Source: a virus
Lineage: Duplodnaviria > Heunggongvirae > Uroviricota > Caudoviricetes
Strand: one strand, 5' to 3'
IMG/VR virus record: IMGVR_UViG_3300028895_001083
Length of the DNA: 64,000 nt
In this document: in pieces, positions 21,261-58,636 of the stretch
How positions within the stretch are numbered: position 1 is the first letter of the stretch
Layout: the number at the start of each line of letters is the position of its first letter
The notes under the pieces: model-generated
Seen by the model: the letters and a program-made list of their open reading frames with translations, nothing else
Told to the model about the DNA's origin: nothing
Database searches by the model: none
Made by a program: the position numbers and the translations under genes

Positions 21261-21752
21261 TTACCCGTTCCGTATGCCAAGAGACTTCGAGAGTCTTTCC
21301 AATTTCCCGTAGAACTCGTCGAGCGTCCCGTAGTTCGGGATGACGATGTCTGCAACGTCTAGATCCATCTCGAGCGACGGATCGTTGGGGACGGCACGGC
21401 TGACCCAGACGATCAGGTCAAGCATGTCCCGTTCTAGCAATGCTTGCAGTTCTCCCGCCCGTCGGATTCCGTTGAGAATATCGCTGTCCTTCAGCATATC
21501 CTCGTACAGCGTGATCCCAAAGGGCTGATTGTACTCCCAGATCGCGTTTGCCCACCGTACCCGGTGATTATGGCGATCTTCCCAGCATTCCCGGACGGTT
21601 TTGTACCCCAGGGTCTTGCCGAATCGCTCAAAAATCATGGGTGCGGCAGCTTCGCTAGTACTGCCAGCATCTGTCAGAATCGTGTTCTCGGTGAGCCATT
21701 GCATGGCGGTGTCTTTGCCGCAGCGCCCTGGCCCACAAATGGCGATTTTCAT
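21261..21752 (-). CDS. P-loop nucleotide kinase (dNMP kinase-like)
   Basis: N-terminal Walker A MKIAICGPGRCGKDT. 163 aa, the size class of phage deoxynucleotide monophosphate kinases. Confidence 0.55.
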   Translation of the reverse strand: MKIAICGPGRCGKDTAMQWLTENTILTDAGSTSEAAAPMIFERFGKTLGYKTVRECWEDRHNHRVRWANAIWEYNQPFGITLYEDMLKDSDILNGIRRAGELQALLERDMLDLIVWVSRAVPNDPSLEMDLDVADIVIPNYGTLDEFYGKLERLSKSLGIRNG

Positions 21753-22066
21753 GAGTCGTTGTAAACCTTCTTCCCAGTGGCATCGATACGAAACGTCCGC
21801 GGATGGGCGCCGTAGAGCAGCATGGCGCGGCAGGCGATCGCTGCAACCTTACGCAGCGCCCGCAACGTCTTCTCTTCGTCGGCACCGTGCACCCAGGCCT
21901 CCTCGGCCTTGCGCATGTAGACCCGCAACGTAGTAAGCTGTCCCACGACACCGTGGTCCAGGCCGTCGCTGCGGTCGGTATCAGCGAATGAGTTTTGGTA
22001 CTCAAGTTCGCTGTTGATAGCGTCGATCACGTCCTGCGAGAGCGCAGGATTCTCAATGGTCATCAT
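21749..22066 (-). CDS. Hypothetical protein (possible MazG-like NTP pyrophosphohydrolase; weak)
   Basis: 105 aa acidic helical protein with EE..E pattern; the assignment is tentative. Confidence 0.4.
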   Translation of the reverse strand: MMTIENPALSQDVIDAINSELEYQNSFADTDRSDGLDHGVVGQLTTLRVYMRKAEEAWVHGADEEKTLRALRKVAAIACRAMLLYGAHPRTFRIDATGKKVYNDS

Positions 22067-22632
22067 TCTTCGAGCAGTCCTTCGTATTGTTCAATCACAC
22101 AGTCCATCGGGTCGTCTCGACGTAGACGGAACCGATTCCAGCTTTTAGGGAAGACGATCTGCCGACCGCCACGCTCCCGGAACTTGGGTTCGTAGCCCTC
22201 GGAGTCATCGATGAGCAGGGCACCAGGGCGGGCCACGCTCTCCTTGCGTCCGGTGAAGATCACGTCGCTGTCGTCGATCTCCTGGCCGTAGACGCGTCGT
22301 AGCCATGTGAGCTTGCCTCGCACGGCGTAGCCAGAGTCAGCACCGCCGAACTCTGGTTTGCAGATATTCCGGGTCAGGAACGTCACTGGCCCGATCTGGC
22401 GGCAGAAATGAAACAACTCTACCGCCCACGGTAGTACCTCGAGTTCGTCCCAGAAGTAGTGCTTCTGATCCACGATCGGTGTCCAGATCTCCGAGTCGGT
22501 CTTGCCGAGTACCGCCACGTCGTGCGTCTCAAGCGTGCCGATCAGGTCTGAACGCCCGTGAAGGCGCAGCACTGCCGGTAGGAAGTCCGCGAGGACATCG
22601 TCAACATCTAGGTAGACTTCGTCGAAACGCAT
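22063..22632 (-). CDS. 5'(3')-deoxyribonucleotidase (HAD superfamily)
   Basis: LDVDDVLADF is the DxDxV phospho-aspartate motif of NT5C-type nucleotidases; 189 aa. Confidence 0.7.
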   Translation of the reverse strand: MRFDEVYLDVDDVLADFLPAVLRLHGRSDLIGTLETHDVAVLGKTDSEIWTPIVDQKHYFWDELEVLPWAVELFHFCRQIGPVTFLTRNICKPEFGGADSGYAVRGKLTWLRRVYGQEIDDSDVIFTGRKESVARPGALLIDDSEGYEPKFRERGGRQIVFPKSWNRFRLRRDDPMDCVIEQYEGLLEE

Positions 22633-27144: not shown

Positions 27145-27915
27145 ATGGAAACAAAATGTGCGCATGCGCAGCAGGACTGGGCGACAGCCTTACTGCAGCG
27201 ACACGGCAAACTGATGGAAGTCGAGGAGATGGAGGCCCTCATTAAGAGGGGTAAGGCAGGGGACGACGACGCGCGGAACCGCGGGATTGCTGGTTGCTAC
27301 AGGCTGGCCTTTCAACAGGCCTGGCGCGCAGCGTACAACGATCCCCACTTCTCCGTCGACGATCTCTTCCAGGAGGCCGTGATCGGCCTCATGAAGGCAG
27401 TCGAGCGCTGGCGACCAGAAACGGGCAACCGATTCGTAACCGCTGCTTGGTTCTCGATCCATGCCGCAATCTCATGGTACAAAAAGTGCCATAGGCGCCT
27501 CGTATACTACCCGCCCCGCTGGGACGAAAAGGGTGTCAAGCGGCCGGACTGGACTAAAGACTGTCCGGAGCTGTTTGCAGACTACGTGTCGTTGCATAAA
27601 CGCGTGGGCACGGGCAATAGGCGAAATCCCGGGATATTCGTGTACGAGATGATTGAAGACGAGACGCTGCGCGACTTCGTTGCCGACGTCGAGAGCGAGG
27701 ACCAAGCCGATATGGTCTACGAGGCGTTCGAGAAGTTGACGGAGCGTGAAGTCGACATACTGCGGCGTCGCTATCTCGGCGACAAGCTTTGGGAGATCGG
27801 TAAAGTTTACGGAATCACCCGCGAACGTGTTCGGCAGTTGATCATCAAAGCCGAAAATATCATCCACAATCACGTCTTGAAAGAGCAAATCGATGGAGAC
27901 GCTGGTACTGCTTAA
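27145..27915 (+). CDS. Sigma-70 family sigma factor (phage-encoded)
   Basis: Region 2-like FQEAVIGLMKAVERW...FVTAAWFSIHAAISWY. Region 4 HTH EVDILRRRYLGDKLWEIGKVYGITRERVRQLIIKAE. Confidence 0.75.
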   Translation: METKCAHAQQDWATALLQRHGKLMEVEEMEALIKRGKAGDDDARNRGIAGCYRLAFQQAWRAAYNDPHFSVDDLFQEAVIGLMKAVERWRPETGNRFVTAAWFSIHAAISWYKKCHRRLVYYPPRWDEKGVKRPDWTKDCPELFADYVSLHKRVGTGNRRNPGIFVYEMIEDETLRDFVADVESEDQADMVYEAFEKLTEREVDILRRRYLGDKLWEIGKVYGITRERVRQLIIKAENIIHNHVLKEQIDGDAGTA

Positions 27916-28318
27916 ACCCGATACGCTCAAACGGGGCCTGGTGGGGCGCGTCCTCACCAGGCTCGAGGATCGGGGCATCCGCTTCCTGCGGGTGAAAGAG
28001 TTGATCATGCTCCCCCGCCACTGCGAGGAGTTGTACGCAAAATTCAAGGGCGAGCCCTACCTGCCTCGCATCCAAGAATTTATGACCAGCGGCCCGATCG
28101 AGGCCCGTGTGGCGCACGCGCCGCACGCGCCCGACGACACGATCACGATCGTACGGTCTGCTGTTGGCAGCTTCACGGCACCCGCTGCAGGCACCATCCG
28201 TGGTGACTTCGGCGCTGTCCGCGAAAAGAACCTGATACACGCCAGCGACTCGCCAAGTGCGGCCAAAGTCGAAATCGAGATATTCTTCCCGGGGTTCCCT
28301 GGAGATGTCGGCGACTAG
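27893..28318 (+). CDS. ndk: Nucleoside diphosphate kinase
   Basis: LVLLKPD, RGLVG, EFMTSGPIEARV, GTIRGDFG and NLIHASDS match the NDK signature including the active-site His region. ATGA coupling to the sigma gene. Confidence 0.85.
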   Translation: METLVLLKPDTLKRGLVGRVLTRLEDRGIRFLRVKELIMLPRHCEELYAKFKGEPYLPRIQEFMTSGPIEARVAHAPHAPDDTITIVRSAVGSFTAPAAGTIRGDFGAVREKNLIHASDSPSAAKVEIEIFFPGFPGDVGD

Positions 28319-33498: not shown

Positions 33499-34326
33499 AT
33501 GGTCAAAGACCTGATTCTCGGTACGCCGTCACGGTCCCCTGCGGCCATGGCGGCGTACCATGCCACCGTTATCCCAAATGGTGGTGTAGTCGAAGACTGG
33601 CGAACCTATCTCGTGCCGCGGATCGCCAATATCCGTCGCGCATGGGTCGCCCGTGTCATAGCGCTCTTTAATGCTGGCTGGTCTGTTTTGCAAAGCCCCA
33701 AGCTCGCCTATGCGCAAAACTGTCTGCCGTGCATCTGCACATCAGACCCGATAACACAGACGTGCAAACTGATACCGTGCCCTTTCTGCCACGCCAGGAA
33801 GGTTGCCGATATCTACATGCGCGCCCAAAAGCTGATCATCAAGCTCGGTAACGTCCGCGTAATCAGTTGGCGACGAAAACACGGTCGGGCTGCCGTCGAC
33901 ATGATCTACCTGAACGAACACGGCCGTGTAACGGGGTTGGGTGAAGTCTTTGCAGAGCATAACGGCCGCCGACGCGAGATCCGCAGAACGCAGCTGCAGG
34001 CTGCATACGGTGGTGCACAGATGGTCACGATCGCTCCGCATACATTCGACCACCCTTCGCCGGAGGGTGCCTGTGGCCGCTGGCTCGTACAGCAGAGCGT
34101 TCTTGCTGTTGTGCCGCGCTATTGGCGTCCACCCAGAGGTATTCGCAAGCGTGCAGTCGTACGCACAAATCCCGATCCCCACGACTTGGCATACCAGGTT
34201 GGGCGGGCGTTTCGGTATCCGCAACACTGGCTTACCAGCGATCCGTGCATCATGCGTGACCTGCTGGAGGCTATGAAAGGCAGACGATTCAAAGAAATTT
34301 TTGGAGACTTACGTGGGTCAGTATGA
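33499..34326 (+). CDS. Cys-cluster (putative zinc-binding) protein
   Basis: AAGGTGGTG SD. Cluster CLPCICTSDPITQTCKLIPCPFCH. Confidence 0.6.
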   Translation: MVKDLILGTPSRSPAAMAAYHATVIPNGGVVEDWRTYLVPRIANIRRAWVARVIALFNAGWSVLQSPKLAYAQNCLPCICTSDPITQTCKLIPCPFCHARKVADIYMRAQKLIIKLGNVRVISWRRKHGRAAVDMIYLNEHGRVTGLGEVFAEHNGRRREIRRTQLQAAYGGAQMVTIAPHTFDHPSPEGACGRWLVQQSVLAVVPRYWRPPRGIRKRAVVRTNPDPHDLAYQVGRAFRYPQHWLTSDPCIMRDLLEAMKGRRFKEIFGDLRGSV

Positions 34327-35038
34327 TCCTATCGAGCGATTAGCATCGCTCGAGTCCAGACATTCCCTGTCGGCTCAAGAGCAGTTCGACATTATCTCCA
34401 ACGCCGTCGACTTCGCGAAGAACTCGCCGTTGGCGTTCGTACAGTTCATCGACATCATGGACGAGGAGCTGCAGTCGCCGCAGATGGCGGTTGCAGAGGT
34501 CAAAGACATGCTGCAGAACCCTGTGGCTGACCTCGAGGCTTTCTTCGACCGCGACCTGTCGTTGGCGTCGCTGAACAACCTCACCGAACTTGAGAGCTCC
34601 GGTGACGTGCCAGAGATGCCGTCGACCGATCTCATCAAATCAGCGGTGCTAGCAATGACGCCGTTCGACTACGAGCAGATGCGCTCCCATCTCACCATGA
34701 CCGACTTCGACTCGGCCTACCACGAAGGCGCTATTGTCACCGGGTGTTACACCCGTTTTGATGACGGTTCTATCGCTGCTGTCGCTCTCGTCCACGCCAC
34801 CCCCGCTAACGGCGGGCCGTACCTTGATGCGTGGCTGTGCCTGCCCCCGGACAAGTTTCCGGATACGCTGAATCCGTCGTTGCCTGCCACAAGGGATATG
34901 GACCAGATCTTCGAGTTCCAGTATCCTGATGGCACGTATCGCGTAATCAAACTCGTATCCGCAGCTGGCCAACAGGAATGTCCAGGTACAACGACGACAG
35001 ACACTGTGAGAAGCCACGAAGGTGCCTCCGGTGCATGA
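34301..35038 (+). CDS. Acidic hypothetical protein
   Basis: TTG or GTG (34313) start overlapping the upstream 3' end. Confidence 0.5.
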   Translation: METYVGQYDPIERLASLESRHSLSAQEQFDIISNAVDFAKNSPLAFVQFIDIMDEELQSPQMAVAEVKDMLQNPVADLEAFFDRDLSLASLNNLTELESSGDVPEMPSTDLIKSAVLAMTPFDYEQMRSHLTMTDFDSAYHEGAIVTGCYTRFDDGSIAAVALVHATPANGGPYLDAWLCLPPDKFPDTLNPSLPATRDMDQIFEFQYPDGTYRVIKLVSAAGQQECPGTTTTDTVRSHEGASGA

Positions 35039-35164: not shown

Positions 35165-36676
35165 ATGACAAATTCGACGGAAGAGCTGGCCTCTGACGAT
35201 TACGTCGTCGTCATTGGTCCCGTCATTGTCGATCGCTACTTCGTGGGCAAACCCAGACGACTTGACCGTACGGCGCCGGTGCCTCTAATCGGCGTCACGG
35301 GACAGTTCTGGGCGCCCGGTGGCGGCGGCAATGCCGCAAACTGCTTGGCCCATCTGGCCCTCCCAACGACGTTCGTCGGCATGGTCGGAGACGACGACGC
35401 CGGCGAAGAGTATCTCAAGGCACCGATGCCTCCCAACCTGCAGCTGAAGGTTGGCAAATACGCTAACTACAGCACCCCCGTAAAAACCCGCGTCTATGCC
35501 AACAATCGCCTTGTAGCACGGTTTGACGCGGACGATCCTTACACAGGGTCGTTCGAGTCTACGACTGCGTCCTTATTTTTTAGCGCTGTGGCAGAGAAGC
35601 CGCCTTTGGCGATACTTATCAGCGACTACAACAAGGGGGTGTGCACGCCCGACATCATCGGGTCCGTGCTGCTCTACGGCGAGGATCACAACGTCCCCGT
35701 GATCGTGGACCCTGATCCGGCGCACACAGAGAGCTATCAGGGCGCTACGCTACTCACGCCGAACGCCGACGAGGCAATGCGGATGGCAGCGGCCTGCGGG
35801 TATGCAGATCGCGCAACCGATCCGGTCGAAGCAGCTGACTTCCTGGCCAACAAGTTCGATTGTGACGTCCTCGTCACGCTCGGCAGCCACGGAATGGTGC
35901 TGGTTCCGCCCCACGGGCAGGAACGGTTCCCGCTGCAAGCGCTGCCCGCCGCTGCGATCGATACGTGCGGTTGCGGAGATGCTGTGGCGTCGGCGATGAC
36001 CTACGGGATTGCCACCGGAATGAACGCACGCACGGCTACGCGCTTTGCAAACGTGTCCGGTTCGCTATGCTGCGAGATCATTGGTGCTATGCCCATCCCG
36101 CTGCACCGCCTCAACCAACGCGTGACGCTGTCGCTCGGGCTCGATCGAAAGGTCGTGACCCTCGACGAGCTGCGTCTCCTGCGGCAATCCGTCGCCGTCG
36201 CCGGCGAAATCTTCGGGGTTGCCAACGGCGTGTTCGACGGCGTCCACGACGGGCACACCTCGCTGCTACGGCAGGCCAGGGAGCATTGTGACTTCCTGGC
36301 GGTGCTCGTGAACACTGACGAATCGGCGGAGCGCATCAAGCGCCGACCGCAACACAGTCAGATAGCCCGTTCGCTCAGCCTGGCGGCGCATCCGTTGGTG
36401 GATGCGGTGCTGCTGTTCGACGGCGATAACGCAGTACCAGAGTATCAGGCGTTGCAGCCCGATATCATGGTAAAAGGGCCGGACTACAAGGATAGGGAAG
36501 ACCTGCTACCGGAAGCTGCGGTGCTGCCTGAATGGGGCGGCGAGCTGCGGTTGGCCGAGCTAGAGGTCGACGTCAGTAGTACCCAACTGCGGGAAGAAGA
36601 TGAGGCCCTCAAAGAGAGCACTGCGCCAGGAGAGACTGAAGACAGCGCTGGAGGAGCTGGAGACGCTGCGGACTGA
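35165..36676 (+). CDS. Bifunctional sugar kinase / nucleotidyltransferase (HldE/RfaE-like)
   Basis: N-terminal ribokinase/pfkB motifs GGGGNAANCLAHLA and DTCGCGDAVASA. C-terminal cytidylyl/adenylyl-transferase motif GVFDGVHDGH (the (H/T)xGH family). Confidence 0.7.
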   Translation: MTNSTEELASDDYVVVIGPVIVDRYFVGKPRRLDRTAPVPLIGVTGQFWAPGGGGNAANCLAHLALPTTFVGMVGDDDAGEEYLKAPMPPNLQLKVGKYANYSTPVKTRVYANNRLVARFDADDPYTGSFESTTASLFFSAVAEKPPLAILISDYNKGVCTPDIIGSVLLYGEDHNVPVIVDPDPAHTESYQGATLLTPNADEAMRMAAACGYADRATDPVEAADFLANKFDCDVLVTLGSHGMVLVPPHGQERFPLQALPAAAIDTCGCGDAVASAMTYGIATGMNARTATRFANVSGSLCCEIIGAMPIPLHRLNQRVTLSLGLDRKVVTLDELRLLRQSVAVAGEIFGVANGVFDGVHDGHTSLLRQAREHCDFLAVLVNTDESAERIKRRPQHSQIARSLSLAAHPLVDAVLLFDGDNAVPEYQALQPDIMVKGPDYKDREDLLPEAAVLPEWGGELRLAELEVDVSSTQLREEDEALKESTAPGETEDSAGGAGDAAD

Positions 36677-36905
36677 ACTCGCCTTCGACGAGATCACCGT
36701 AACGCTCAGCGACTTCCAACGACACTGGCAGTTCAAATATGGCGACAAGCATTTGGCGGACTGGTGGCCAGCTTCTGCGAAGGGACAGCTCACAGGGTCA
36801 CAAGACTCCGTCGACTGTGTGAGCACGTCTCAAGCGCAGAAGCTGGCCATCGCCGCTAAGAAGAAGCTGTTTACCGAGATTCGGCAGGCGCTTCAGCAGA
36901 GGTGA
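36600..36905 (+). CDS. Hypothetical protein
   Basis: High GC3 in this frame where it overlaps the low-GC3 tail of the HldE-like ORF. Confidence 0.5.
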   Translation: MRPSKRALRQERLKTALEELETLRTELAFDEITVTLSDFQRHWQFKYGDKHLADWWPASAKGQLTGSQDSVDCVSTSQAQKLAIAAKKKLFTEIRQALQQR

Positions 36906-37044
36906 GCTCCTCTCGCAGGATTTGTACATCCGGCGGGGCGTCGACACCGAGGCGGATCCGATCACGACCAGTGCGGATGACCGTGACGGTGATGTCGTCG
37001 CCAATCTTGATCTGCTCACCTTCTTTGCGGGACAGGACCAACAT
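36871..37044 (-). CDS. csrA: Carbon storage regulator CsrA/RsmA homolog
   Basis: 57 aa, MLVLSRKEGEQIKIGDDITVTVIRTGRDRIRLGVDAPPDVQILREEL. This nearly co-linear alignment to CsrA ([48 protein letters not shown]) was done by eye. AAGGAGG SD. Confidence 0.8.
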   Translation of the reverse strand: MLVLSRKEGEQIKIGDDITVTVIRTGRDRIRLGVDAPPDVQILREELTSAEAPAESR

Positions 37045-37508: not shown

Positions 37509-38726
37509 ATGGCAGCGAGACCGCTAGCACTGGTATCGGCTGACTGGCATCTTCGTAAGTACGACCGCGTGTGGTACCGACGTGACACGCTGCGCGGCGA
37601 CGCCGCGTGGGGCGTCCGACAGGTATGCGACATTGCGGCCGAGCAAATGCCTGATTGTCTGATCCTGCTGGGCGACCTGTTCGACCAGCGGCTGCAGCAG
37701 TCAGATTCTCTGATGCTCATGCGACGAGCTATGGCTGATTTCCAGGAGAACAATATCCAAGTGCAGTTCATTCAAGGACAGCACGAGCGGTCTTCACCGA
37801 CGCTGATGAAGTCGATCCACAGCTGGTCACAGCATATCGACGAGCGGATGGTGGAGTTGGACAACGGCAACCTGCTCATGTACGGCCTGGATTATCGCAA
37901 TCCGGTCGAGGTTGAGGAGGCGCTGCGTGCCGTGCCTACAAACGCTGACATTTTGGCGACTCATCAGGTTTGGAAGGATTACCTTGGCGAGGAGCGCGGC
38001 GATGCCTGGTTCCACTGGGCGCCGACGCAGTTCATTGCCACGGGAGATTTCCACAAAGCGAAATTCGAGACGCGTGGGACGCAGAAGATCCTGTCACCGG
38101 GACCGCTCTGCATGCAGAACATCGGCGAGGATCACGAGAAGTTCGTGTTCATGCTGAACTCTGATCTCACCGTCACGCCATACAAATTGCGATCGCGCGG
38201 CTACTATGAGGCACGCCTGTACGAGGAAGCGCAACTCGAGCAATTCCTCGACGAGTGGGACGCCTCCCCGGCGAAGATCCCGCAGGTTGGCGTGCCGCCC
38301 GCCGTCGCAACAAACATCATCCGCGTTTGGTACCGTTCGGATATTCCCGACGCCAAGCCGCGGTTGGAAGGTAGGATCGGCTCATCGGCCCACCTATTTA
38401 CAACGATGATCCCTGTCGAAGACCAGGCACAGACGGTCGACGCCGAGCGGCGTGTCCAGGCTGTACTTGGTGCGGGCATGGTCGGATGCATCAACGAGTT
38501 TTACGGAGATGACCCTCGCGCATGCGCAGATGCCGTGCGGCTCTACCGTAGCAAAGACATCCAAACCGAGCTACTTTCAATCTTCAAGGAGCAAGTTAGT
38601 GTCCCTAACGGTCACCGAGAAGGAACATTTCAAGACGAGACTCCAGGAGATCCACGATCGAGCGACTGCACAACTGACGGCCGACGCGCCAGCGTGGGAG
38701 CCACGGCTCCGCAACAAGGCAGCTAA
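37509..38726 (+). CDS. sbcD: SbcD/Mre11-family nuclease
   Basis: Phosphoesterase motifs SADWH, LLGDLFD, GQHE and ATHQ. Paired with the downstream SbcC-like ATPase. Confidence 0.8.
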   Translation: MAARPLALVSADWHLRKYDRVWYRRDTLRGDAAWGVRQVCDIAAEQMPDCLILLGDLFDQRLQQSDSLMLMRRAMADFQENNIQVQFIQGQHERSSPTLMKSIHSWSQHIDERMVELDNGNLLMYGLDYRNPVEVEEALRAVPTNADILATHQVWKDYLGEERGDAWFHWAPTQFIATGDFHKAKFETRGTQKILSPGPLCMQNIGEDHEKFVFMLNSDLTVTPYKLRSRGYYEARLYEEAQLEQFLDEWDASPAKIPQVGVPPAVATNIIRVWYRSDIPDAKPRLEGRIGSSAHLFTTMIPVEDQAQTVDAERRVQAVLGAGMVGCINEFYGDDPRACADAVRLYRSKDIQTELLSIFKEQVSVPNGHREGTFQDETPGDPRSSDCTTDGRRASVGATAPQQGS

Positions 38727-39668: not shown

Positions 39669-40003
39669 GTGCGGACCTCACGTTGAAGTACGCAACCACT
39701 TTCACGAGTCTTGCTAACGCTATGCGACTTGTGAAGGCGTCGCTGCTGGCCCTCAAGGATGCCAGCGATAATCTCAACGACTGGTGGGACGACCAAGACC
39801 TCGAAGGTGTGGAGGACGAGGACGAGTTCCTCGCCAAGAAAGCCGCCGAGACTTTTGGCATCCCGGAGAGCTTCGCGCTCGCCCTTGTCGACTTTTCGTT
39901 GCTTCCAGAGATCAAAGGTATGAAGGCTGCGCCGCCTGACGCCATGACGCTCGCCGAAGCGCTATCACTACTGCACCCCCTAACAAGTGAGAGCTGGCCA
40001 TGA
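39665..40003 (+). CDS. Hypothetical acidic protein
   Basis: ATGA coupling on both sides. Confidence 0.55.
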   Translation: MSADLTLKYATTFTSLANAMRLVKASLLALKDASDNLNDWWDDQDLEGVEDEDEFLAKKAAETFGIPESFALALVDFSLLPEIKGMKAAPPDAMTLAEALSLLHPLTSESWP

Positions 40004-42144
40004 TAATCCAGAAGGTCAACCTTCGACATTTCTGCCAGCACATCCAGGAAGAATTCACGCTGTCGCCTGGGCTCAACATGATCGTTGGGCCCAACGGCAG
40101 CGGGAAGACCAACCTCCTGCGTGCTACGCAGTTTCTCGTCACGGGGGACTCGGGCGGCAATCGCCCCAAGGCGGACGACGTCTACCAAGGCGTGTTCGGC
40201 TCAAACGAGGAGTCCTTTGTGAGCGGCCAGCTGTTGCACGAGGGAACAGTCATTACCCTCAAGCGTGCGCTCCAGCCGGCGACAGCCAATCTCATGGAGA
40301 TCGGCGACGAGACCTGGACGTCTGTCAATGCCATCAACAGCGAGCTGTTCCGACGGCTGGGCACGACGAAGAAGCAGATCCACGACTACATCTTCGTCCG
40401 CCAACGCGGCATCGACGAGATGTTCGACCAAAAGCCCGCCGAGCGGGCCGCATCGCTGGCATCCCTCTTCGGCCTCGACAAGGCTGAGAAGATCTGGAAG
40501 CAGACCGGCGACTTCCTCAAAACGATCGAGGTGCCGACCACGACGTTGAGTCTGGATGAGCTGAACGCGCAGCACGCTGACATACAGGTGCAGATCACCG
40601 AGCTCAACAACCAGTTCGCGGCGCTCCATCTACCACTCGACGGCGACGCCAAGCTTGCGGAACATCAAACCGTGATCGACGGCTGTAAGCAGCGTGAGAT
40701 GCTGATGAACAAGCAGGCGGTCCTGGAGAAGACGCGTGAAGAGACGCTCGCTTCTGCCAAGGCTGCGATGTCGTACCGGCAACAGTTGCAGACAGAGGCT
40801 ACGCTGCTGGAGAACGCTATGGCCGCCGTCAGCGTCGAAGCCAATGACGCGCACGGCGAGCTGGCACGTTGGGACGCGTACGATAAGTCGCTGACAGCGC
40901 GCGAGCAGTTCGTCGCCGACGAGCTGGCTTTTCGTACCAAGTGGCCGAGTCATCCGAAGCAGCCGCGCGAGGTCGCACCGCTCGGTGAGGACCTTGTCGA
41001 GGCGTTGAAGGGCTATCGTGCAGTGCGTAACAGTCTCACCAACAGCATCAAAGGCCTGGAGGATGAGGACGACAACTGTCCGACGTGTGGCCAGCCACTG
41101 CCCGAGGCCGACCAGGCCACGGCACGCTTGCAGGAGCTGCACGATCAGCTGCGTGAGTGCGAGATGGAACGACAGCCGCTCGAGGAACAGCAACGTGCGT
41201 ACGATCAGTACTGCGCCGAGCTGTTACACTGGCAACGGCAGTGCGAGGAGATGGATAAAGAGCAGGAAGCCTTGGAGCAACGCAAAGAGGCCCTGCAGCT
41301 GGTTGAGCAACCACGCAGCGCGCGTGACGCTCTCCAGGCCGTCATCGACGAGCACACCGAGTTCTGTGCGGCGCATAAGGAGATCCAGGAGAAGCTTAAG
41401 GTGGCGCTTGCTACTGAGGCCAGCCTCGACGCGAAGCTGGACCAGCAAAACCAGACGCACTTTGAGCAGACCGCGGAGATCGACTCGCTGCATAAGTACA
41501 CGGCGGAGGCCGCTACCATTGCTCGCCAGGAGTTGCAGCAGCTGAAAGGCCGGCTGGCGCAGGCCACCGAGCTCGACAAGCAGATCGCTGTGCTGCGCGC
41601 CACGCTCGACGGCGTGGAGTCGAAGATCGACGACGTGCGGCGTGTGGAGCAAAAGAGCATCCGCACTCGGCAGGCTGTCGACCACCTGCAGCGTATCCGA
41701 GACATGTACCACCGCAACGAGGCCCCGCGCTTGGTGTCCTACACCTATATCGAGAACATGCTCGACGAGGTGAACCGAACACTGGAGCTATTCGAGGCGC
41801 CTTTCCGGGTGGAGATGGACGAGGATCTGGGCTTCATCTGCCGGTTTACCGATGGTATTCGGGTGCAGCCCGACAGTCGGCTCTCGGTCGGCGAGCGGAT
41901 CGTTCTTGCTATGGCGTTCCGCATTACAGTAAACTCTACGTTCGCAGGTCAGGTGGGTGTCCTCATTCTGGACGAGCCCACTGCCGGCCTTGACGAACAC
42001 AACCTCGGCTGTCTACCGCACGCCCTGGAACGTCTGCAGGTACTATCTGCAGAGCGTGGACTCCAGGTTTTGTTCGTCACGCACGAACCGCGGATTCAGC
42101 ACCTGTTTGACAACGTCATTACGTTACGAGCCCATGAAAACTGA
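40000..42144 (+). CDS. sbcC: SbcC/Rad50-family ATPase
   Basis: N-terminal Walker A GPNGSGKTN, long coiled coil with a central CPTCGQPL zinc hook, and a C-terminal signature/Walker B region (VLILDEPTAGLD). Confidence 0.85.
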   Translation: MIIQKVNLRHFCQHIQEEFTLSPGLNMIVGPNGSGKTNLLRATQFLVTGDSGGNRPKADDVYQGVFGSNEESFVSGQLLHEGTVITLKRALQPATANLMEIGDETWTSVNAINSELFRRLGTTKKQIHDYIFVRQRGIDEMFDQKPAERAASLASLFGLDKAEKIWKQTGDFLKTIEVPTTTLSLDELNAQHADIQVQITELNNQFAALHLPLDGDAKLAEHQTVIDGCKQREMLMNKQAVLEKTREETLASAKAAMSYRQQLQTEATLLENAMAAVSVEANDAHGELARWDAYDKSLTAREQFVADELAFRTKWPSHPKQPREVAPLGEDLVEALKGYRAVRNSLTNSIKGLEDEDDNCPTCGQPLPEADQATARLQELHDQLRECEMERQPLEEQQRAYDQYCAELLHWQRQCEEMDKEQEALEQRKEALQLVEQPRSARDALQAVIDEHTEFCAAHKEIQEKLKVALATEASLDAKLDQQNQTHFEQTAEIDSLHKYTAEAATIARQELQQLKGRLAQATELDKQIAVLRATLDGVESKIDDVRRVEQKSIRTRQAVDHLQRIRDMYHRNEAPRLVSYTYIENMLDEVNRTLELFEAPFRVEMDEDLGFICRFTDGIRVQPDSRLSVGERIVLAMAFRITVNSTFAGQVGVLILDEPTAGLDEHNLGCLPHALERLQVLSAERGLQVLFVTHEPRIQHLFDNVITLRAHEN

Positions 42145-47801: not shown

Positions 47802-48919
47802 AATCGGTTACCGGCGTGACCCTGGGCAACGATGCCGCAGGCGCACACGTCATCAACCCGTTCCTTTACGAGAAGCTCCAGAAACGCTTCGGCGATGTTA
47901 TCATCGCCAAGCAAGGCGAGCCGATCTACGGGAACTACACGTATGACGGCAGCGGCTTCAAGTACGACACCCTCGGCGGAGAGTATTATCGCGTCTGCTG
48001 CCCGTTCTGCGAGCAGAAGCGCGCGGTGGATACCAAACACCGACTGTGGATCAGCCATCGCTGGGGCGTCGGCCTCGACGAGGATGACCCGCAGACCAAA
48101 CTGAAGCCGAACGATCGGTTTTGGTGGGCGTGGGTGTGCTACAACGAGCATTGCGAAGAGAACCCGGCGAACACCAAACAGTTGCAGACCTGGGTCTACG
48201 GCGGTATCGGCCGGGAGCTACACGCGCCCGCCGTCAAGCTGCAGTTCCACACTGTGCCGATGGCGTCGCTCGGACTCGTCGACTGGCCTGGCCGCTGCTT
48301 GCGGGTGGACCAGCTGCGACCGGAGCACCACGCATGGCAGTACCTGGCGACCCGCGGCTTTGACCCCGCGGCAGTTGGCCCACGCTACGGCGTGACGTAC
48401 TGCGAGAGTGGTTCGGCGCGCTTCCCGATGGCGTTCGGACGGTTGGTGATCCCGATCGTGATGAACGGCGATATGGTTGGCTGGCAAGCCCGCCCGCCAT
48501 ATGAAGCAGACTGGAAGACCACCGCCAAGTACTACAACTGTCCCGGCATCAACCGGCGACTCATGTTGTACGGCTTCGACATAGCCAGGGCGTATCCGTA
48601 CTGCGTCATAACCGAGGGCGTCACCGACGTGTGGGCTGTCGGCCAGGGGGCGATCTCGCTCCTCGGCAAGCACATATCCCCGCAGCAGGCAGAGCTGATC
48701 GCGCAGAACTGGAAAGCAGCCGTGATCGCTCTCGACCCTGACGCAATGGACCGAGTCGAGCGTATCCAGCAGCAGCTGGGCAGTATGCCGACGGTGGTCG
48801 TGAAACTCCCAGACGGTTGCGATCCAGCTGACATGGATCAGGATCGCTTCTGGGATCTTGTATGGCAAAGTTCCGTAAACCAGAATGTTGATCTGTTAGG
48901 ACTACAGAATGATTCCTGA
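47798..48919 (+). CDS. DnaG-like DNA primase
   Basis: Zn-binding CCPFC...CYNEHC. TOPRIM acidic motifs VITEGVTD and ALDPD. ATGA coupling to the helicase. Confidence 0.8.
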   Translation: MKSVTGVTLGNDAAGAHVINPFLYEKLQKRFGDVIIAKQGEPIYGNYTYDGSGFKYDTLGGEYYRVCCPFCEQKRAVDTKHRLWISHRWGVGLDEDDPQTKLKPNDRFWWAWVCYNEHCEENPANTKQLQTWVYGGIGRELHAPAVKLQFHTVPMASLGLVDWPGRCLRVDQLRPEHHAWQYLATRGFDPAAVGPRYGVTYCESGSARFPMAFGRLVIPIVMNGDMVGWQARPPYEADWKTTAKYYNCPGINRRLMLYGFDIARAYPYCVITEGVTDVWAVGQGAISLLGKHISPQQAELIAQNWKAAVIALDPDAMDRVERIQQQLGSMPTVVVKLPDGCDPADMDQDRFWDLVWQSSVNQNVDLLGLQNDS

Positions 48920-51900
48920 ACTAGGTCTCGACGACCTTCAAGCGATTTTCCGCAACGACGAGGACAACGAGTACAGTCGGCGCTTTCCGATGTACCCCCT
49001 CGTGTCTCCCGGCATGCCGCCGCCTGGCCCGGACTTCATCGCCCACGCGAAAGCGCTCGGCGATGCTAACCCCTACGTCGTAGAGGGTACGGGCAAGAAC
49101 AAGCGCGGCATCGAAGCCGGATTCAAGCTGCAGTGCCTGTATCTGAAGGCGCTGTACTCGAACGAACTCCACATGCCCATCAAGGTGAAAGGGCGTACCG
49201 AGACGGTGCGCATCCTGCCCGGGCATCTCTGGGGCGATCATGCCGAAGGTCCCAAGTACCTCGAGAACGAGGAGCTGCGGGGACGACCGCGTGTGATGGT
49301 TGTTGGAAAGCACCCTGGCCTCGAAGAGATAGGCGAGGGACGCAACTTCGTCGGCCCGTCTGGCCGGCAACTGAAGGACACGTTGACCGCGCTCGGTCTG
49401 AGTGATGCCGAGCTCAATGATTGGTACGTGTGTAACCTGGTGCGTTGGATGAACGTCAATCCGCAGAGCGGCGCGTTGCCGCAGGCGTGGATCAAGGACT
49501 GTCTTCCGCTGCTGCACCAGGAGATCCGGCTGTACCGGCCTGACTATATCCTGTGCCTCGGGGCCGAAGCGACCAAAGCGGTCATCCCGGGCAACACAGT
49601 GAATACCATGGTGGGCCGTTACGTCGAGCGCACTGAGATGCTGCAAGAGTATGGCGAGCCTGATGACCTGCATACCTCCAAGGTGATGGCCATCACGCAT
49701 CCGGCGGCTGTGCTGCGTACCACGGAGTTGTACCCGGCGTTCGAAGCCACCCTGCGGAACTTCATCCAGTTGATCCGTGGCGAGGAGTTTACGAGCGCAG
49801 AGAACGACAACATCACGATCCAATACATGTACAAGGAAAGGGAGTTGAAGGAGTACGTTGACTACGTCCTTTCTCGCCCTGGGTTGAAAAAGATAGCAGT
49901 TGACGGTGAGTGGCACGGCCAGCATCCCGGCGAGCCGGGGTCGTACCTCCGTACGATACAGGTAAGCCACACCGGCAAGTATGCCGCCGTCATCGTCCTG
50001 CGAGGGCAGGGCGGTGGTACTGCGTTTCGACCAGGCATTTCGCGCGCGATCGATCACCTTAACCGGCTGCTCGATCGTGACGACGTCCAGATTGGCGGCA
50101 GCTTCTTCGCTGCTGACCTTCCGTGGCTTGAACACAACGGCCTGAACATCGCCCACCGCTTCAAGGTACCGCCCACGGTCGACGAGATCCGCGGCGGTAA
50201 CTACGCAGGCGGCTTCGACATCGGCTTGGCCCACCACGCCTACAACGAGACCGGTGACTTCAAGCTGGAAGTCATGGCCTCTCGGTTGTGCGGTGCGCCT
50301 CGCTGGGACGTTGCGCTGGGCGAGTGGAAGAAGGCGTACCTCAAGGAGCGGAAGATGAAGGACGAGGAGCTCGAAGGGTACGGAGAGTGCCCCGACGAGG
50401 TCCTACTGCCCTACGGCGGCAAAGATGCTGCCTACACACGTCAGCTGATGGACAGGCATTGCAACCTGCTGAACGGCGATCGCTACGGCAACGACTGCTG
50501 GATCCCGTTCCATCTGTCCATGATGGCATTCCCGGCCTTCAACGAGATGGGCACGATCGGCGTCAAGATCGACCCCGAACGCATTGATGAGCTCACCGAC
50601 CAATTCATCGAAGTGAGCGCCCAGAAGCTGAAGAAGCTTCAGGAGGACATCAACTGGCCGGCGTTCAACCCTCGAAGTTCACAGCAGTGTGTGGAATTCC
50701 TGTTCGGCGAGCGCTACTCTACGCGCCGTGACAAGGACACAGGAGAGCGGCTCAGCGTGCGTCCAGCGGGCGCCATGACGCTCAACCTGGAGCCCATCAA
50801 GTCCACTGGCAAAGGTAAGCCGTGGGGCTGGGTGATGTCCAGAGGCGAACAGGAGAAGTACACGCCGAGTACAGATAAAGAGACATGTGGCATTTTGGGT
50901 TTACAACACCCAATGGCGTTACAGCTACGCGACGTGAGGCTGATCGACCAAGTGTTGAAGTCCGTATTCCGTCCGCCTAAGTACAAGGCAAAATCGACGG
51001 AGATCGAACTCGACAGCAATGGCCGACGGATCTACGGCGGTGGCATCGCTAAGTACATATGCCATGACCAGCGTGTGAGAAGTTCGTTCCAACAAGTGAA
51101 GGAAACTGGACGTGCGTCAAGTGCGAGGCCGCCATTACAGAATATCAGTAAGCGTCGCGAAGACGATTACTCGAGAATCCTGGGTGACCAATACCGCTGG
51201 CCAATCCGGTCATTTATCGTCAGCAACACCGACCCCGGCTATGCCGAACCTACCGTCCTTGTAGAGTCAGACTATAAGGGCGCGGAACTTATGGGGATGG
51301 CGGTGATGGCTCGCGATGCGCAAATGTTGGATCACTGCTTACGCGCAAACCTGCCCGATGGCGATCCGCAGCAATATGATATCCACTCAAATATCGCTGT
51401 GACTTCCTTTCAACTTGACTGCGAGGCTAGCAAAGCTGGACTCGCATCGATCAAGCAGAAGGGCAAGCGCGTTGCTGCGAAAAACATCATCTTCGGCGTA
51501 GGCTATGGACGCACCGCGGAGGCGTGCGCCAGGCAGTGCCAGGAAGAAAATGCTCCTATCACCGTTGCGGAAGCGCAAAGCATTATCGACACGATCTTCG
51601 AGCTCTATCCGGGTATTCCAGCGTTGCAAGAGGCACTCCGTGCCCGCGTCGCTAACCCGGGATGGCTTAGAAATTGTTTCGGTAGGTATCGTCGATTCAT
51701 CAGCACGTCTGATCGAGCGGCGATGGGCGAATTGGAGCGCCAGGCACTGAATTTTCCGTTTCAGAGTATGGTAGCCGATGCCGTTTCGACGGCGCTATAT
51801 TGGCTACACAACCATCCTCGTAAAGAGGAACTTGGGTACAAGATTGTCCTCCAGATCCACGATGCGATCGTGCTGGAGGTCCCATGTCGCAGCTTGGACG

Positions 51901-52094
51901 TGGTACACAACGAGATCCTGCCAGAGTGCATGGTCGACAAAGTGTCCTTCCAGGCATGTGACTTAGACGGAGCTCCGTATGCGGACAGTCCGATCTACCG
52001 ATTTGGGTTGGATCAGGACGTGTTCACGCGATGGGGCTTGAAGTTGACAGAAGAGGAGTGTGAGCGGTTGGGAATTAGTCCCGATTATATCTAG
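48909..52094 (+). CDS. Family A DNA polymerase with N-terminal UDG-like (family 4-type) domain
   Basis: Pol motif A DYKGAELM, B KRVAAKNIIFGVGYG, C QIHDAIVLEV. N-terminal GKHPGLEEIGEGRNFVGPSGRQL and ITHPA resemble the UDG family-4 motifs GE(A/G)PG...FVG.AG and HPS. Confidence 0.9.
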   Translation: MIPELGLDDLQAIFRNDEDNEYSRRFPMYPLVSPGMPPPGPDFIAHAKALGDANPYVVEGTGKNKRGIEAGFKLQCLYLKALYSNELHMPIKVKGRTETVRILPGHLWGDHAEGPKYLENEELRGRPRVMVVGKHPGLEEIGEGRNFVGPSGRQLKDTLTALGLSDAELNDWYVCNLVRWMNVNPQSGALPQAWIKDCLPLLHQEIRLYRPDYILCLGAEATKAVIPGNTVNTMVGRYVERTEMLQEYGEPDDLHTSKVMAITHPAAVLRTTELYPAFEATLRNFIQLIRGEEFTSAENDNITIQYMYKERELKEYVDYVLSRPGLKKIAVDGEWHGQHPGEPGSYLRTIQVSHTGKYAAVIVLRGQGGGTAFRPGISRAIDHLNRLLDRDDVQIGGSFFAADLPWLEHNGLNIAHRFKVPPTVDEIRGGNYAGGFDIGLAHHAYNETGDFKLEVMASRLCGAPRWDVALGEWKKAYLKERKMKDEELEGYGECPDEVLLPYGGKDAAYTRQLMDRHCNLLNGDRYGNDCWIPFHLSMMAFPAFNEMGTIGVKIDPERIDELTDQFIEVSAQKLKKLQEDINWPAFNPRSSQQCVEFLFGERYSTRRDKDTGERLSVRPAGAMTLNLEPIKSTGKGKPWGWVMSRGEQEKYTPSTDKETCGILGLQHPMALQLRDVRLIDQVLKSVFRPPKYKAKSTEIELDSNGRRIYGGGIAKYICHDQRVRSSFQQVKETGRASSARPPLQNISKRREDDYSRILGDQYRWPIRSFIVSNTDPGYAEPTVLVESDYKGAELMGMAVMARDAQMLDHCLRANLPDGDPQQYDIHSNIAVTSFQLDCEASKAGLASIKQKGKRVAAKNIIFGVGYGRTAEACARQCQEENAPITVAEAQSIIDTIFELYPGIPALQEALRARVANPGWLRNCFGRYRRFISTSDRAAMGELERQALNFPFQSMVADAVSTALYWLHNHPRKEELGYKIVLQIHDAIVLEVPCRSLDVVHNEILPECMVDKVSFQACDLDGAPYADSPIYRFGLDQDVFTRWGLKLTEEECERLGISPDYI

Positions 52095-56648: not shown

Positions 56649-57776
56649 ATGGCAAAAACCACTCTACCCGCCAAGGTCGAAGAGTACACCGCTCTTCAAG
56701 CACAATCCACCTTCACGAAGGCCGAAGAGAAGGCCTTCAAGGAGTTAAACGAATATATCACCAAGCGCGCCAAGGACGACATCTGGTGGTATTGGGAGCT
56801 CGGTCAAAAGGTCAAGAAGATCTATGAAGACGCCAAAGACCGTGAGGACATCTACGGCAAGCGCGTGTTGCTGCGCATGGCCAAGGCTCTCGGCTACAAG
56901 ACAGACCAACAGCTCCGCAACACCATGACTGTTGTGGAGACTTTCAAGACGAAGAAGGAGTTCAACAAGCTCGTCCGGCTGAAGGGCGAAGCGCAGAACA
57001 CGTTGAACTGGTCGCACCTCGTGTACCTCGCCCAGATTGGCGACGACAAGCTGCGGAACCAGCTGGCCGCCTCCACGCTCGAACAGAGCTGGAACGCCAA
57101 GGACCTCTGGGACCGTGTCAAGGAGCTGGCCAACCGCAAGAAACGCGGTTCCGGCGCCAAGGTGAAGACCAAGATCCCGGCATCGCCGGTCGGCATGTTC
57201 AGCCATGTACGTTCGCAGGCCAACAAGTTCGTCCAGAACTTCGAGGAGGCGTGGACGGGCGACGTCTACGACATCTGCGGCGAGGTGGCCAGCATCCCGG
57301 CCGACAAGCTGAACGACAAGCTCGTCCAGGCCGTCGCCGACACGCGTGCGAAGCTCGTGTCCATGCAGGAGTGCGCCGCCTCCCTCGAAGAGCAGCTCAT
57401 GCAAGTTGAGGAGGACATCGAGGCCCGTCGTAAGGCCCAGGCGGAGGCTGAGGAAGAAGCCGCGGCTGCCGAAGCTGCCGAAGAGGACTACGAAGACGAT
57501 ATCGACGAGGGGGAGGACGACGATGACGACTTCGATCCGAACGACGACGTCTACGCTGAAGACGAAGCGGAAGACGCGGAGGAGGAAGAGGACGACGAGG
57601 TTGAGGAAGATTCCGCCCAAGACGAAGAGGACTGGGAAGAGGAAGAGACTGTCAACCTTGGCAAACAACGAAACGCTCAACGGCGAGCCAAGTCTGCCGC
57701 AGAGCGGGAAAAGAAAAAGAAACGTGAAGCTCGCGCTGCAGCTCGCCGCAAGGGGCGAGTGGGAGTAAGCAAGTGA
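56649..57776 (+). CDS. Protein with ~110-aa poly-acidic (D/E) region and basic C-terminal tail
   Basis: AEEEAAAAEAAEEDYEDDIDEGEDDDDDFDPNDDVYAEDEAEDAEEEEDDEVEEDSAQDEEDWEEEE followed by KSAAEREKKKKREARAAARRKGR. Confidence 0.6.
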   Translation: MAKTTLPAKVEEYTALQAQSTFTKAEEKAFKELNEYITKRAKDDIWWYWELGQKVKKIYEDAKDREDIYGKRVLLRMAKALGYKTDQQLRNTMTVVETFKTKKEFNKLVRLKGEAQNTLNWSHLVYLAQIGDDKLRNQLAASTLEQSWNAKDLWDRVKELANRKKRGSGAKVKTKIPASPVGMFSHVRSQANKFVQNFEEAWTGDVYDICGEVASIPADKLNDKLVQAVADTRAKLVSMQECAASLEEQLMQVEEDIEARRKAQAEAEEEAAAAEAAEEDYEDDIDEGEDDDDDFDPNDDVYAEDEAEDAEEEEDDEVEEDSAQDEEDWEEEETVNLGKQRNAQRRAKSAAEREKKKKREARAAARRKGRVGVSK

Positions 57777-58636
57777 AAACGCCCATAACACCGCAGTTTA
57801 CGGTGTGCGTTTTACTCTACGGGAACTATCCGGAGTTGCTCAATAGGTGTCTCGACTCGTTGAGCAACCCGGAGTGGTACCCGTGGTTTAATCTCCGTAT
57901 CGGCTGGCAGGGCCTTGGCGCGCAGTCGGAGACGGACTTACTGAGCCACGTCGCTAAATGGCAGACGGCTAAGCTGCGTGGCACGTGCCGCGATCCGTTG
58001 GAGATGTGTCTGAAAGGGCATTCCCCCTTCTTCAAGTATCCGACGATGCGCCGGATGTTCTACGAGATGCCGATCAAGACGCCCTACATCATGTGGTTCG
58101 ATGACGACTCGTTCATCAACACCTGTGCCAACGGTTTCTTCCGGGGCATTCAGGACTTCATGGAGTATGGTGCGCGTAAGCGAAAGCCCGACGGCACGCT
58201 TACGCCGGCAGACACTGCCGACATGATCGGCGCCAAGTACGTGATGGCCCTGCGGGGCAATCAACGACAGTACATCGAAGACCAACCGTGGTACGCGGGC
58301 AAACCAATAGCCCGGCGCCCCGGGTTCATTACCGGTGGCTGGTGGACAATCCGTACCCCGATTATCCAACAATGGAACTGGCCGTCAGAGGACTTACAGC
58401 ACAACGGCGGAGATTTGCTACTCGGGGAGTTGTGTCATCAGCAGGGATATCGTATAAAGCACTTTACGAAGGGACTGGGCATCAACTGCGATGCAAGCGG
58501 CAGATGCTCGACAGCGCCACGGCGCGGACACTCCCAGGACCCTTGCGGTACCAACTACGTGCGGCCAGCTAATCACCGTTCGCCGAACGACGAGTGGCAG
58601 CTCTCACGAAGCCGTTACCGCCGGAGGCGAGAATGA
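57773..58636 (+). CDS. Family-2 (GT-A fold) glycosyltransferase
   Basis: N-terminal FTVCVLLYGNYPELLNRCLDSL is a GT2 Rossmann start. DxD motif MWFDDDS. GTG start with a GGGAG SD. Confidence 0.6.
   Translation: MKTPITPQFTVCVLLYGNYPELLNRCLDSLSNPEWYPWFNLRIGWQGLGAQSETDLLSHVAKWQTAKLRGTCRDPLEMCLKGHSPFFKYPTMRRMFYEMPIKTPYIMWFDDDSFINTCANGFFRGIQDFMEYGARKRKPDGTLTPADTADMIGAKYVMALRGNQRQYIEDQPWYAGKPIARRPGFITGGWWTIRTPIIQQWNWPSEDLQHNGGDLLLGELCHQQGYRIKHFTKGLGINCDASGRCSTAPRRGHSQDPCGTNYVRPANHRSPNDEWQLSRSRYRRRRE

Follow-up and report, generated by a model that had tools for sequence, protein, structure and literature searches.

A divergent HldE-type enzyme, encoded at positions 35165-36676 of a 64,000-nucleotide stretch of DNA from a tailed phage (Caudoviricetes; IMG/VR record IMGVR_UViG_3300028895_001083; the whole stretch is hereafter named the window), appears to act as the donor supply of a variable sugar island and to feed a glycosyltransferase during infection; we hold this to be the probable explanation of the gene, if not yet a firm one. 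Phage HldE-like genes are of a known kind, whereas the deep HldD-less lineage to which this one belongs, and its residence in a swappable slot beside Mre11/SbcCD, are new.

The assignment of the enzyme was made with profile, structure and fold searches. Pfam assigned residues 13-309 to PfkB (1.6e-28) and residues 352-477 to CTP_transf_like (8e-10), and the NCBIfam model of HldE, NF008454, aligned end to end with the protein (E=3.6e-72; residues 12-475 against positions 11-467 of the 475-position model). The two single-domain models, rfaE_dom_I (TIGR02198) and rfaE_dom_II (TIGR02199), gave 1e-56 and 1e-28, respectively, and other pfkB models were many orders of magnitude weaker (ribokinase, 1e-19, versus 1e-56 for rfaE_dom_I). 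By sequence, the closest solved structures were HldA (PDB 4E84) for the kinase half and HldC (PDB 5X9Q, 4e-18) for the transferase half. The AlphaFold2 (AF2) model, built on 18 homologs, consisted of two folded domains with disordered residues 1-9 and 477-503 (predicted local distance difference test, pLDDT, 86.9; predicted template modelling score, pTM, 0.83). Its seven top structural matches were HldA (E about 1e-23; template modelling score, TM, 0.80-0.86, target-normalised), followed by ribokinases and pseudouridine kinases. An initial annotation of this DNA had placed an HldE-like kinase/nucleotidyltransferase here, and this was confirmed: the open reading frame (ORF) is exact and the Pfam, NCBIfam, PDB and fold matches agree. 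The check that it had proposed, profile searches against the pfkB and cytidylyltransferase families, was run, and the heptose-specific models outranked all other subfamilies. At the level of the enzyme, its prediction that an ADP-heptose-like nucleoside diphosphate (NDP)-sugar would be made is well supported by the domains, the heptose-type matches and the conserved motifs described below.

In order to inspect these motifs, five proteins of the phage clade were aligned with 13 bacterial HldE sequences. GG, SDY-KG, DP, TPNxxE, GxGD with the catalytic Asp, NGxFDxxHxGH, K392 and KG were invariant. In the kinase half these include G52-G53, T198-P199-N200/E203 and G269/G271/D272; in the transferase half H361-x-G363-H364 was invariant, and S471 was followed by Ser or Thr (S-(S/T)-T motif). 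The catalytic residues were almost unchanged in all 22 members of the phage lineage described below, some of which are only ~25% identical: the catalytic Asp, the GxGD glycines, E203 and GG were kept nearly without exception, with few flanking substitutions. The motifs of HldC that are predicted to bind beta-heptose 1-phosphate are TNG, NSD, KG, ExTP as well as KGG (PMC7993394), and the Asn, Asn, Lys and Lys-Gly of these motifs are kept in the HldE-like protein, but the motifs themselves are altered (see below). Judging from these sequences, both HldE-like activities are probably under selection, and the substrate is probably heptose or a closely similar sugar. Most members of the sub-clade also carry a C-terminal tail of 17-37 amino acids (aa), mostly acidic (3-10 Asp plus Glu residues), which neither bacterial HldE sequences nor those of other viruses have and which might serve for docking. 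Several close relatives have a recurring G-A-G-D-like motif at the end of this tail.

HldE-like genes are common in IMG/VR. A single-protein pattern search of this database with the HldE-like sequence returned nothing, and the profile-based scans gave at least 546 confirmed matches. Most of these are ~415-aa proteins that fall into a few groups and are only 25-29% identical to the window protein; some of them come from contigs that carry T4-like structural genes or from bins of giant viruses, and they adjoin sugar-nucleotide genes. A homolog of HldD, up to 47% identical to that of E. coli, was located near HldE in 60 of 77 unrelated viral loci. This common, HldD-paired class is the familiar LPS-precursor (lipopolysaccharide-precursor) type of auxiliary gene.

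The closest homologs of the window protein (34-44% identity) form four protein clusters on phage contigs of 55-66 kb. In the two that were examined the gene order was the same: a 275-aa protein, a ~240-aa protein, HldE, sometimes a CsrA gene on the opposite strand, a ~124-aa protein, the Mre11-like protein and the SbcC-like protein. A wider set of 64 viral loci, on contigs of up to 229 kb, was recovered by means of the Mre11-like protein; SbcC, helicases, a primase-like gene and PolA are common to most of these relatives. The HldE-like gene was found upstream of Mre11 in 22 of them, and in most of the 22 it lies immediately upstream, in the same slot. The identity between HldE proteins drops together with that between Mre11 proteins, from 45% and 53% down to ~27% and ~30%, respectively. 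In a neighbour-joining tree, crude and without support values, no HldE of the lineage nested among bacterial or other viral HldE sequences, and the common viral sequences clustered with bacterial HldE. Since the identity tracks that of Mre11, no nesting is seen in the tree and the GC content around the gene is unremarkable, the sequence data point to an HldE that is old, vertically inherited and repeatedly lost; taken together with the conservation of the motifs, they indicate a long residence under purifying selection. There are, hence, two classes of viral HldE-like genes: the common HldD-paired one, and a deep-branching one that lacks HldD and resides beside Mre11/SbcCD.

Partner enzymes of the heptose pathway were searched for in the lineage. 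With the E. coli proteins as tblastn queries, nothing was obtained for GmhA, HldD or WaaC in 160 lineage loci (3.2 Mb), whereas only two relatives had GmhB-like genes and one had a WaaF-like fragment. The two GmhB-like genes (L107:13513-13914 and L151:15508-15978), whose products share ~30% identity with GmhB of E. coli (E about 1e-14), are located downstream of the GT-A-fold gene described below, at a distance of a few kb, and the WaaF-like (GT9) fragment (L169:8992-9303) lies ~1 kb upstream of it; all three are tblastn matches only. No SIS, GmhB-type HAD or epimerase domain was found by Pfam or PHROG among the window proteins. The scope of the search within this phage was wider than the window. 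Many metagenome assemblies contain a sequence more than 99.9% identical, e.g. on contigs of 110,773, 131,470 and 220,266 bp, the last of which is about twice the size of the genome; from these near-identical contigs of 110,773 bp and more it follows that the genome is ~110 kb, and the window is ~58% of it. The window and ~15 kb of its flanks (7 kb on the left and 8 kb on the right), i.e. ~80 kb of the ~110-kb genome, were examined. As GmhA, GmhB and HldD were not found in these ~80 kb, the complete ADP-L-glycero-D-manno-heptose pathway is not encoded there. Two candidates for a missing partner were considered and rejected. The NT5C-like HAD protein was discarded as a GmhB substitute, since its matches are to deoxyribonucleotidase families and a search of the window with GmhB of E. 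coli was negative. The 275-aa protein upstream was discarded as a hidden GmhA, GmhB or glycosyltransferase partner, because it belongs to a large four-Cys family with weak Rep_1 matches.

The contents of the slot upstream of Mre11 were then compared among the 64 relatives. In six HldE-negative relatives a homologous RGP-like gene adjoins Mre11; the two copies that were scanned matched PF03214 (RGP, UDP-arabinopyranose mutase / GT75) with 5e-13 and 2e-19. This gene is preceded by a ~270-aa protein and, in L213, also by a weak sulfotransferase-like gene. In L209 (229 kb) HldE is followed by a GT2-like gene, then by an RGP-like gene (1e-23), a 279-aa ORF and finally Mre11. The GT2-like gene of L209 overlaps HldE by 16 nt, and its match to PF13704 (1.2e-5) is just below the cutoff. 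Local hidden Markov models (HMMs) detected this two-gene cassette, GT2-like (~270 aa) plus RGP/GT75-like (~350-420 aa), in seven of the 64 loci. HldE, the cassette or both fill the slot in 28 of the 64 relatives; the slot of the window holds HldE alone, without the cassette. Because the GT2-like and RGP-like pair occupies the same slot in seven relatives, the slot between the early genes and Mre11/SbcCD is a variable sugar island. Its contents are the best evidence obtained here, and suggest that the HldE of this lineage feeds phage-directed glycosylation rather than a mere top-up of a host pool. A literature search returned no usable reports on phage RGP-family proteins or on the function of phage HldE. 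In at least one HldE-negative relative, the slot region holds a gene (L186:6743-8314), ~1.7 kb upstream of Mre11, whose 524-aa product contains a T5orf172/MUG113 domain.

The following route would be consistent with these data. The HldE-type enzyme, divergent yet predicted from its sequence to be catalytically competent, would make ADP-heptose. The GmhA isomerase and the GmhB 7-phosphatase would be supplied by the host, because neither is encoded in the phage sequence seen, and the direct product would be the D,D form of the heptose nucleotide, because no HldD epimerase is present. HldE would represent the donor-supply element of the sugar island, in its fixed slot between the early genes and Mre11/SbcCD. 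The activated sugar would be used during infection by a glycosyltransferase, which may be the phage GT-A protein at 57773-58636, an enzyme encoded outside the window or an enzyme of the host. An envelope glycan or a protein is, in our view, a more likely acceptor than DNA. Remodelling of the host surface, which the initial annotation had named as the alternative to glycosylation of DNA bases, may be the outcome.

The possible consumer within the window, the protein encoded at 57773-58636, was described as a GT2 glycosyltransferase in the initial annotation. This ORF had no Pfam match (E<=1e-3) and no PHROG match, PF00535 was found on only one of 44 homologs, and a profile of the family gave no match among PDB sequences. 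The family has a GT2-like N-terminus and the invariant motifs WFDDDS (D110-D111-D112), TGGWW and GGD. Its AF2 model (pLDDT 90.9) retrieved 242 PDB matches with E<=1e-3, and the top 50 listed were almost all GT-A proteins with probability 1.0. These matches are generic (TM of only 0.38-0.53) and include AvpGT, RmlT, hyaluronan synthase, TarP and viral GT2-like proteins. On the basis of this model the protein is best described as a divergent GT-A enzyme; the fold and the invariant DDD bear out the glycosyltransferase assignment, whereas the GT2 label finds no PF00535 match to rest on. The protein has an isoelectric point (pI) of 9.3, is soluble, lacks transmembrane or hydrophobic segments and has an Arg-rich C-terminus. 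The GTG start of its gene overlaps the stop codon of the upstream DUF1016_N gene (GTGA). The GT-A gene was detected in at least 80 viral loci together with PolA-UDG (UDG, uracil-DNA glycosylase; 69 loci), the UvsX-like recombinase (76) and the gene at 60050-60883 (77), and in none of the 80 was HldE located within 10 kb of it. No match at all was found among cultured phages. Proteins ~30% identical occur as a lone gene in the genomes of Ramlibacter, Caenimonas, other Burkholderiales and Verrucomicrobiota. These bacterial copies often have an atypically low GC content at third codon positions and ordinary metabolic neighbours, with no phage genes nearby, and no informative gene cluster was recognised in their neighbourhoods.

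Table 1. Positions of the features discussed in the text (window positions, unless a related contig is named)
Feature	Position	Strand	Basis and remarks
HldE-like bifunctional gene	35165..36676, stop codon included	+	ORF, ATG start, 503 aa
pfkB/ribokinase-fold kinase domain, N-terminal, residues 13-309	35201..36091	+	heptose-7-phosphate-kinase-like
Cytidylyltransferase-like domain, C-terminal, residues 352-477	36218..36595	+	heptose-1-phosphate-adenylyltransferase-like
Acidic disordered C-terminal tail, residues 478-503	36596..36673	+	AF2 pLDDT <50 for 477-503; sub-clade-specific
GT-A-fold glycosyltransferase-like protein; may be a consumer of the NDP-sugar	57773..58636	+	fold, motifs
Mre11/SbcD-like phosphoesterase, anchor of the slot	37509..38726	+	Metallophos_2; SbcD-like PHROG match among the window proteins
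SbcC/Rad50-like ATPase	40000..42144	+	SMC_N, AAA_23; present in 62/64 relatives
GT2-like + RGP-like cassette	L209:7098-8954; L213:7698-9723; also L214, L217, L220, L222, L223		upstream of Mre11
CsrA homolog, 57 aa, just downstream of HldE	36871..37044	-	PF02599
Acidic 241-aa protein, upstream neighbour of HldE	34313..35038	+	conserved in sub-clade
275-aa basic protein, four invariant Cys, Rep_1-like	33499..34326	+	syntenic with HldE; pI 10.3
Family A DNA polymerase with N-terminal UDG-like domain	48909..52094	+	PF00476, PF03167, PF01612
Nucleoside diphosphate kinase (NDK)	27893..28318	+	PF00334
NT5C-like 5'-deoxyribonucleotidase, HAD superfamily	22063..22632	-	PF06941, phrog_2643
dNMP-kinase-like P-loop protein	21261..21752	-	N-terminal P-loop and tblastn matches, one annotated dNMP kinase

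The immediate neighbours of the HldE-like gene were also analysed (Table 1). The family of the 275-aa protein comprises 219 representative clusters (~270-300 aa) and has no separate Pfam model; C75, C89, C94, C97 and R100 are invariant in it. A weak match to PF01446 (Rep_1) was found in eight of 60 members and an IS91 transposase zinc-binding domain in four of 60; from these sequence features the protein is probably related to replication and is not a sugar enzyme. The 241-aa protein was considered as a hidden pathway partner as well, and no relatives of it were detectable in PDB, Pfam or PHROGs. The CsrA homolog was detected in 17 of the 64 relatives, mostly at the same position. Scans for promoters and terminators near the HldE-like gene gave fewer matches than shuffled sequence.

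The remaining gene content is that of a phage. The window encodes a gpA-type terminase, PolA with the UDG-like domain, a DnaB-like helicase and the SbcC/Mre11-like pair, and also a UvsX-like recombinase, a primase, an NAD ligase, a sigma factor, NDK, CsrA and three tRNAs; the latter were the only matches of an Rfam scan of the window. The large terminase gene (10682-12565, minus strand) is the sole minus-strand gene within a long plus-strand block, and no portal, capsid or tail genes were recognisable in the window. No close relative was found among cultured phages, in which the best HldE matches were 25-31% identical and those of PolA ~23%. The precomputed annotations gave no Pfam match for any of the genes in the ~15 kb of flanks. 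Two contigs of the lineage are included in metagenome-assembled genomes, L254 in one of Gemmataceae (Planctomycetota) and the 174.7-kb L253 in one of an 'uncultured bacterium', which is a weak clue to the host at best. A protein of 597 aa that contains a GHKL-type ATPase domain (HATPase_c_3; 14966-16759, plus strand) and an SPFH/Band_7 protein (20681-21172, minus strand) are unusual cargo for a phage.

The other genes that the initial annotation had grouped with HldE were recovered: the radical SAM gene (6435-7325), which is QueE-like in PHROGs, the dNMP-kinase-like, NT5C-like (PF06941) and NDK (PF00334) genes, and the polymerase with the UDG-like domain (PF00476 plus PF03167). A phrog_139 match is present among the window proteins; the assignment of the dNMP-kinase-like protein to its ORF rests on the P-loop and the tblastn matches. 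The sigma-70-like gene (27145-27915, plus strand) overlaps the start of the NDK gene. The radical SAM gene is flanked by a gene whose product has a TAT-type signal (5945-6454) and by one that encodes a DUF7873 protein (7608-8393), all on the plus strand. The radical SAM gene was considered as a sign of 7-deazaguanine in the DNA and rejected, since no DpdA/TGT, FolE, QueC or QueD was found among the window proteins.

The HldE-like protein was compared with characterised systems. It resembles bacterial HldE (RfaE) and the Burkholderia HldA and HldC (PDB 4E84 and 5X9Q) in its two-domain architecture, its catalytic motifs and its best matches, but differs from bacterial HldE in its low identity (~30%), its scores below the equivalog cutoffs, its acidic disordered tail and its altered sugar-1-phosphate motifs, and in that the phage gene resides in a replication/recombination module without GmhA, GmhB, HldD or GT9 partners. 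With the common viral HldE (T4-like contigs, giant-virus metagenome-assembled genomes, PHROG 7878 in cyanophages) it shares the pfkB plus nucleotidyltransferase arrangement and intact motifs; unlike these ~415-aa proteins encoded beside HldD, the window lineage is deep-branching, HldD-less and located beside Mre11/SbcCD. A phage kinase with a cytidylyltransferase-fold enzyme as donor supply is also known from the heptose-5hmC (5-hydroxymethylcytosine) cluster 'contig 53' (Burke et al., bioRxiv 10.1101/2023.12.21.572611), which consists of an HAD/APH fusion (kinase/phosphatase), a separate cytidylyltransferase, a GT-B enzyme and a C5-methyltransferase plus a TET-like dioxygenase. The HAD/APH fusion, the C5-methyltransferase, the TET-like dioxygenase and the GT-B were not found among the window proteins. 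The AfhE-type enzymes of the arabinosyl-DNA phages RB69, DLP3 and HY126 likewise combine a kinase and a nucleotidyltransferase on one polypeptide; the folds, however, are unrelated, AfhE-type proteins being a MurU-like nucleotidyltransferase joined to a protein-kinase-like domain, and their genes are clustered with a ThyA-like 5-hydroxy-dCMP synthase and DNA arabinosyltransferases (PMC13326640). The heptose-5hmC and arabinosyl-DNA systems all need an enzyme that adds a hydroxyl to the base.

Several observations weigh against a heptose-type donor enzyme that serves a glycosyltransferase. The score of NF008454 was 243.5 bits, less than half of the equivalog cutoff of 521, and the domain models also remained below theirs (192.4 versus 345 and 100 versus 181.5 bits). 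The predicted sugar-1-phosphate motifs are altered to ANG, NTD and KGP, with a two-residue deletion after K392, and the window protein reads D-N-A-V-P, i.e. with NA replacing TP. The GT-A gene is 21 kb away and no glycosyltransferase adjoins HldE in the window. The co-occurrence of the two genes in the relatives was not significant (13 contigs with both, six with HldE only, 14 with the glycosyltransferase only and 17 with neither; odds ratio 2.6, Fisher p=0.15), in a comparison where the glycosyltransferase-negative calls are uncertain and phylogeny was not controlled. To our knowledge, the transferases that use ADP-heptose are GT-B and not GT-A enzymes. Moreover, the gene content rests on ~80 kb of the ~110-kb genome. 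Given the altered motifs and the scores far below the cutoffs, the sugar may not be heptose, and the same fold might act on another substrate, e.g. a hexose or pentose phosphate, to form an ADP- or other NDP-sugar. Such a change of substrate would agree with the ~30% identity to bacterial HldE, with the fact that the changes in the predicted sugar-1-phosphate-binding motifs are lineage-specific, with the acceptance of beta-glucose 1-phosphate as a surrogate substrate by HldC (PMC7993394) and with the RGP-like enzymes in the same slot of relatives, the RGP family being named for UDP-arabinose mutases. We nevertheless regard it as very unlikely, as heptose models and structures outrank the other pfkB and cytidylyltransferase families by many orders of magnitude and nearly every residue that is invariant in bacterial HldE is conserved. 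Alternatively, the gene might be a plain auxiliary metabolic gene that tops up the host pool of ADP-heptose for the LPS inner core without any phage glycosyltransferase, which assumes that the host has GmhA, GmhB, HldD and WaaC/F. The characterised role of HldE is the synthesis of LPS and glycan precursors, and this counts in favour of such a function, as do the isolation of HldE in the window, with no glycosyltransferase, GmhA, GmhB or HldD adjacent, and the abundance of viral HldE-like genes that are accompanied by HldD and other sugar-nucleotide genes. HldD, however, was not found in the window lineage, unlike the common viral class; the slot holds glycosyltransferase genes in relatives, once directly downstream of HldE, which suggests phage-directed glycosylation; and heptose in the LPS of the host is an assumption. 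For these reasons a plain auxiliary gene seems rather unlikely to us.

The initial annotation had read HldE, the glycosyltransferase and the nucleotide genes as a pathway of DNA hypermodification, in which ADP-heptose would be moved by the GT-A enzyme at 57773-58636, or by another phage glycosyltransferase, onto a modified base and would protect the DNA against host nucleases. There is a precedent, since the phage cluster with HAD/APH, cytidylyltransferase and GT-B puts one or two heptoses on 5hmC, and the GT-A-type DNA transferases of the same study resemble TarP and JGT and share the DDD motif (bioRxiv 10.1101/2023.12.21.572611). TarP is among the fold matches of the GT-A protein, in whose family DDD is invariant, and the top PDB fold match, AvpGT, was solved with the nucleoside Ara-A bound. 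HldE and the GT-A gene both lie inside the replication/recombination module, the latter translationally coupled to the DUF1016_N gene, its product is soluble and basic with an Arg-rich C-terminus, and the phage has the dNMP-kinase-like protein, NDK and the 5'-nucleotidase. In spite of this, the pathway was not supported. No ThyA-like hydroxymethylase, ThyX, TET/JBP, C5-methyltransferase or DpdA was present among the called genes of the window and its flanks, which include the whole nucleotide/replication module; the census comprised 67 otherwise unannotated window proteins, scanned with Pfam and PHROG, plus the genes annotated earlier. No enzyme making an acceptor hydroxyl on a base was, therefore, found in these ~80 kb, and canonical DNA offers no hydroxyl acceptor. 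The GT-A gene is a distant core replication gene that is not significantly tied to HldE, members of its family are also found singly, as isolated genes, on the chromosomes of bacteria, its fold matches are generic (TM <=0.53), and both the heptose precedent and the known ADP-heptose-using transferases are of the GT-B type. dNMP kinase, NDK, 5'-nucleotidase and UDG-PolA are widespread in phages (UDG-PolA was matched in many cultured ones) and are not diagnostic. A weak point against a modification that blocks polymerases is that assembly of the genome is routine, with at least 27 blocks of the assembly collection containing it. Hypermodification of the phage DNA with heptose is, hence, unlikely; what still speaks for it is the location of both sugar-related loci in the replication module, together with the properties of the GT-A protein. 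A broader version, in which the uncultured phages of this lineage (100-230 kb) attach sugars of the heptose or arabinose type to their DNA or to some other target associated with replication, by means of the core GT-A enzyme and the swappable sugar island, is in our opinion quite unlikely.

Phage HldE-like genes are usually filed as auxiliary metabolic genes of the LPS type, and here two classes of them are told apart. The results also call for caution, because an NDP-sugar gene and a glycosyltransferase in the same phage are insufficient for inferring DNA hypermodification without a base-activating enzyme. If this lineage did glycosylate its own DNA, the acceptor would be made by an enzyme unrelated to the ThyA-like and TET routes, which would represent a new pathway of DNA hypermodification. 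The acceptor of the GT-A enzyme of the core replication module, once found, could reveal a new kind of phage-directed glycosylation.

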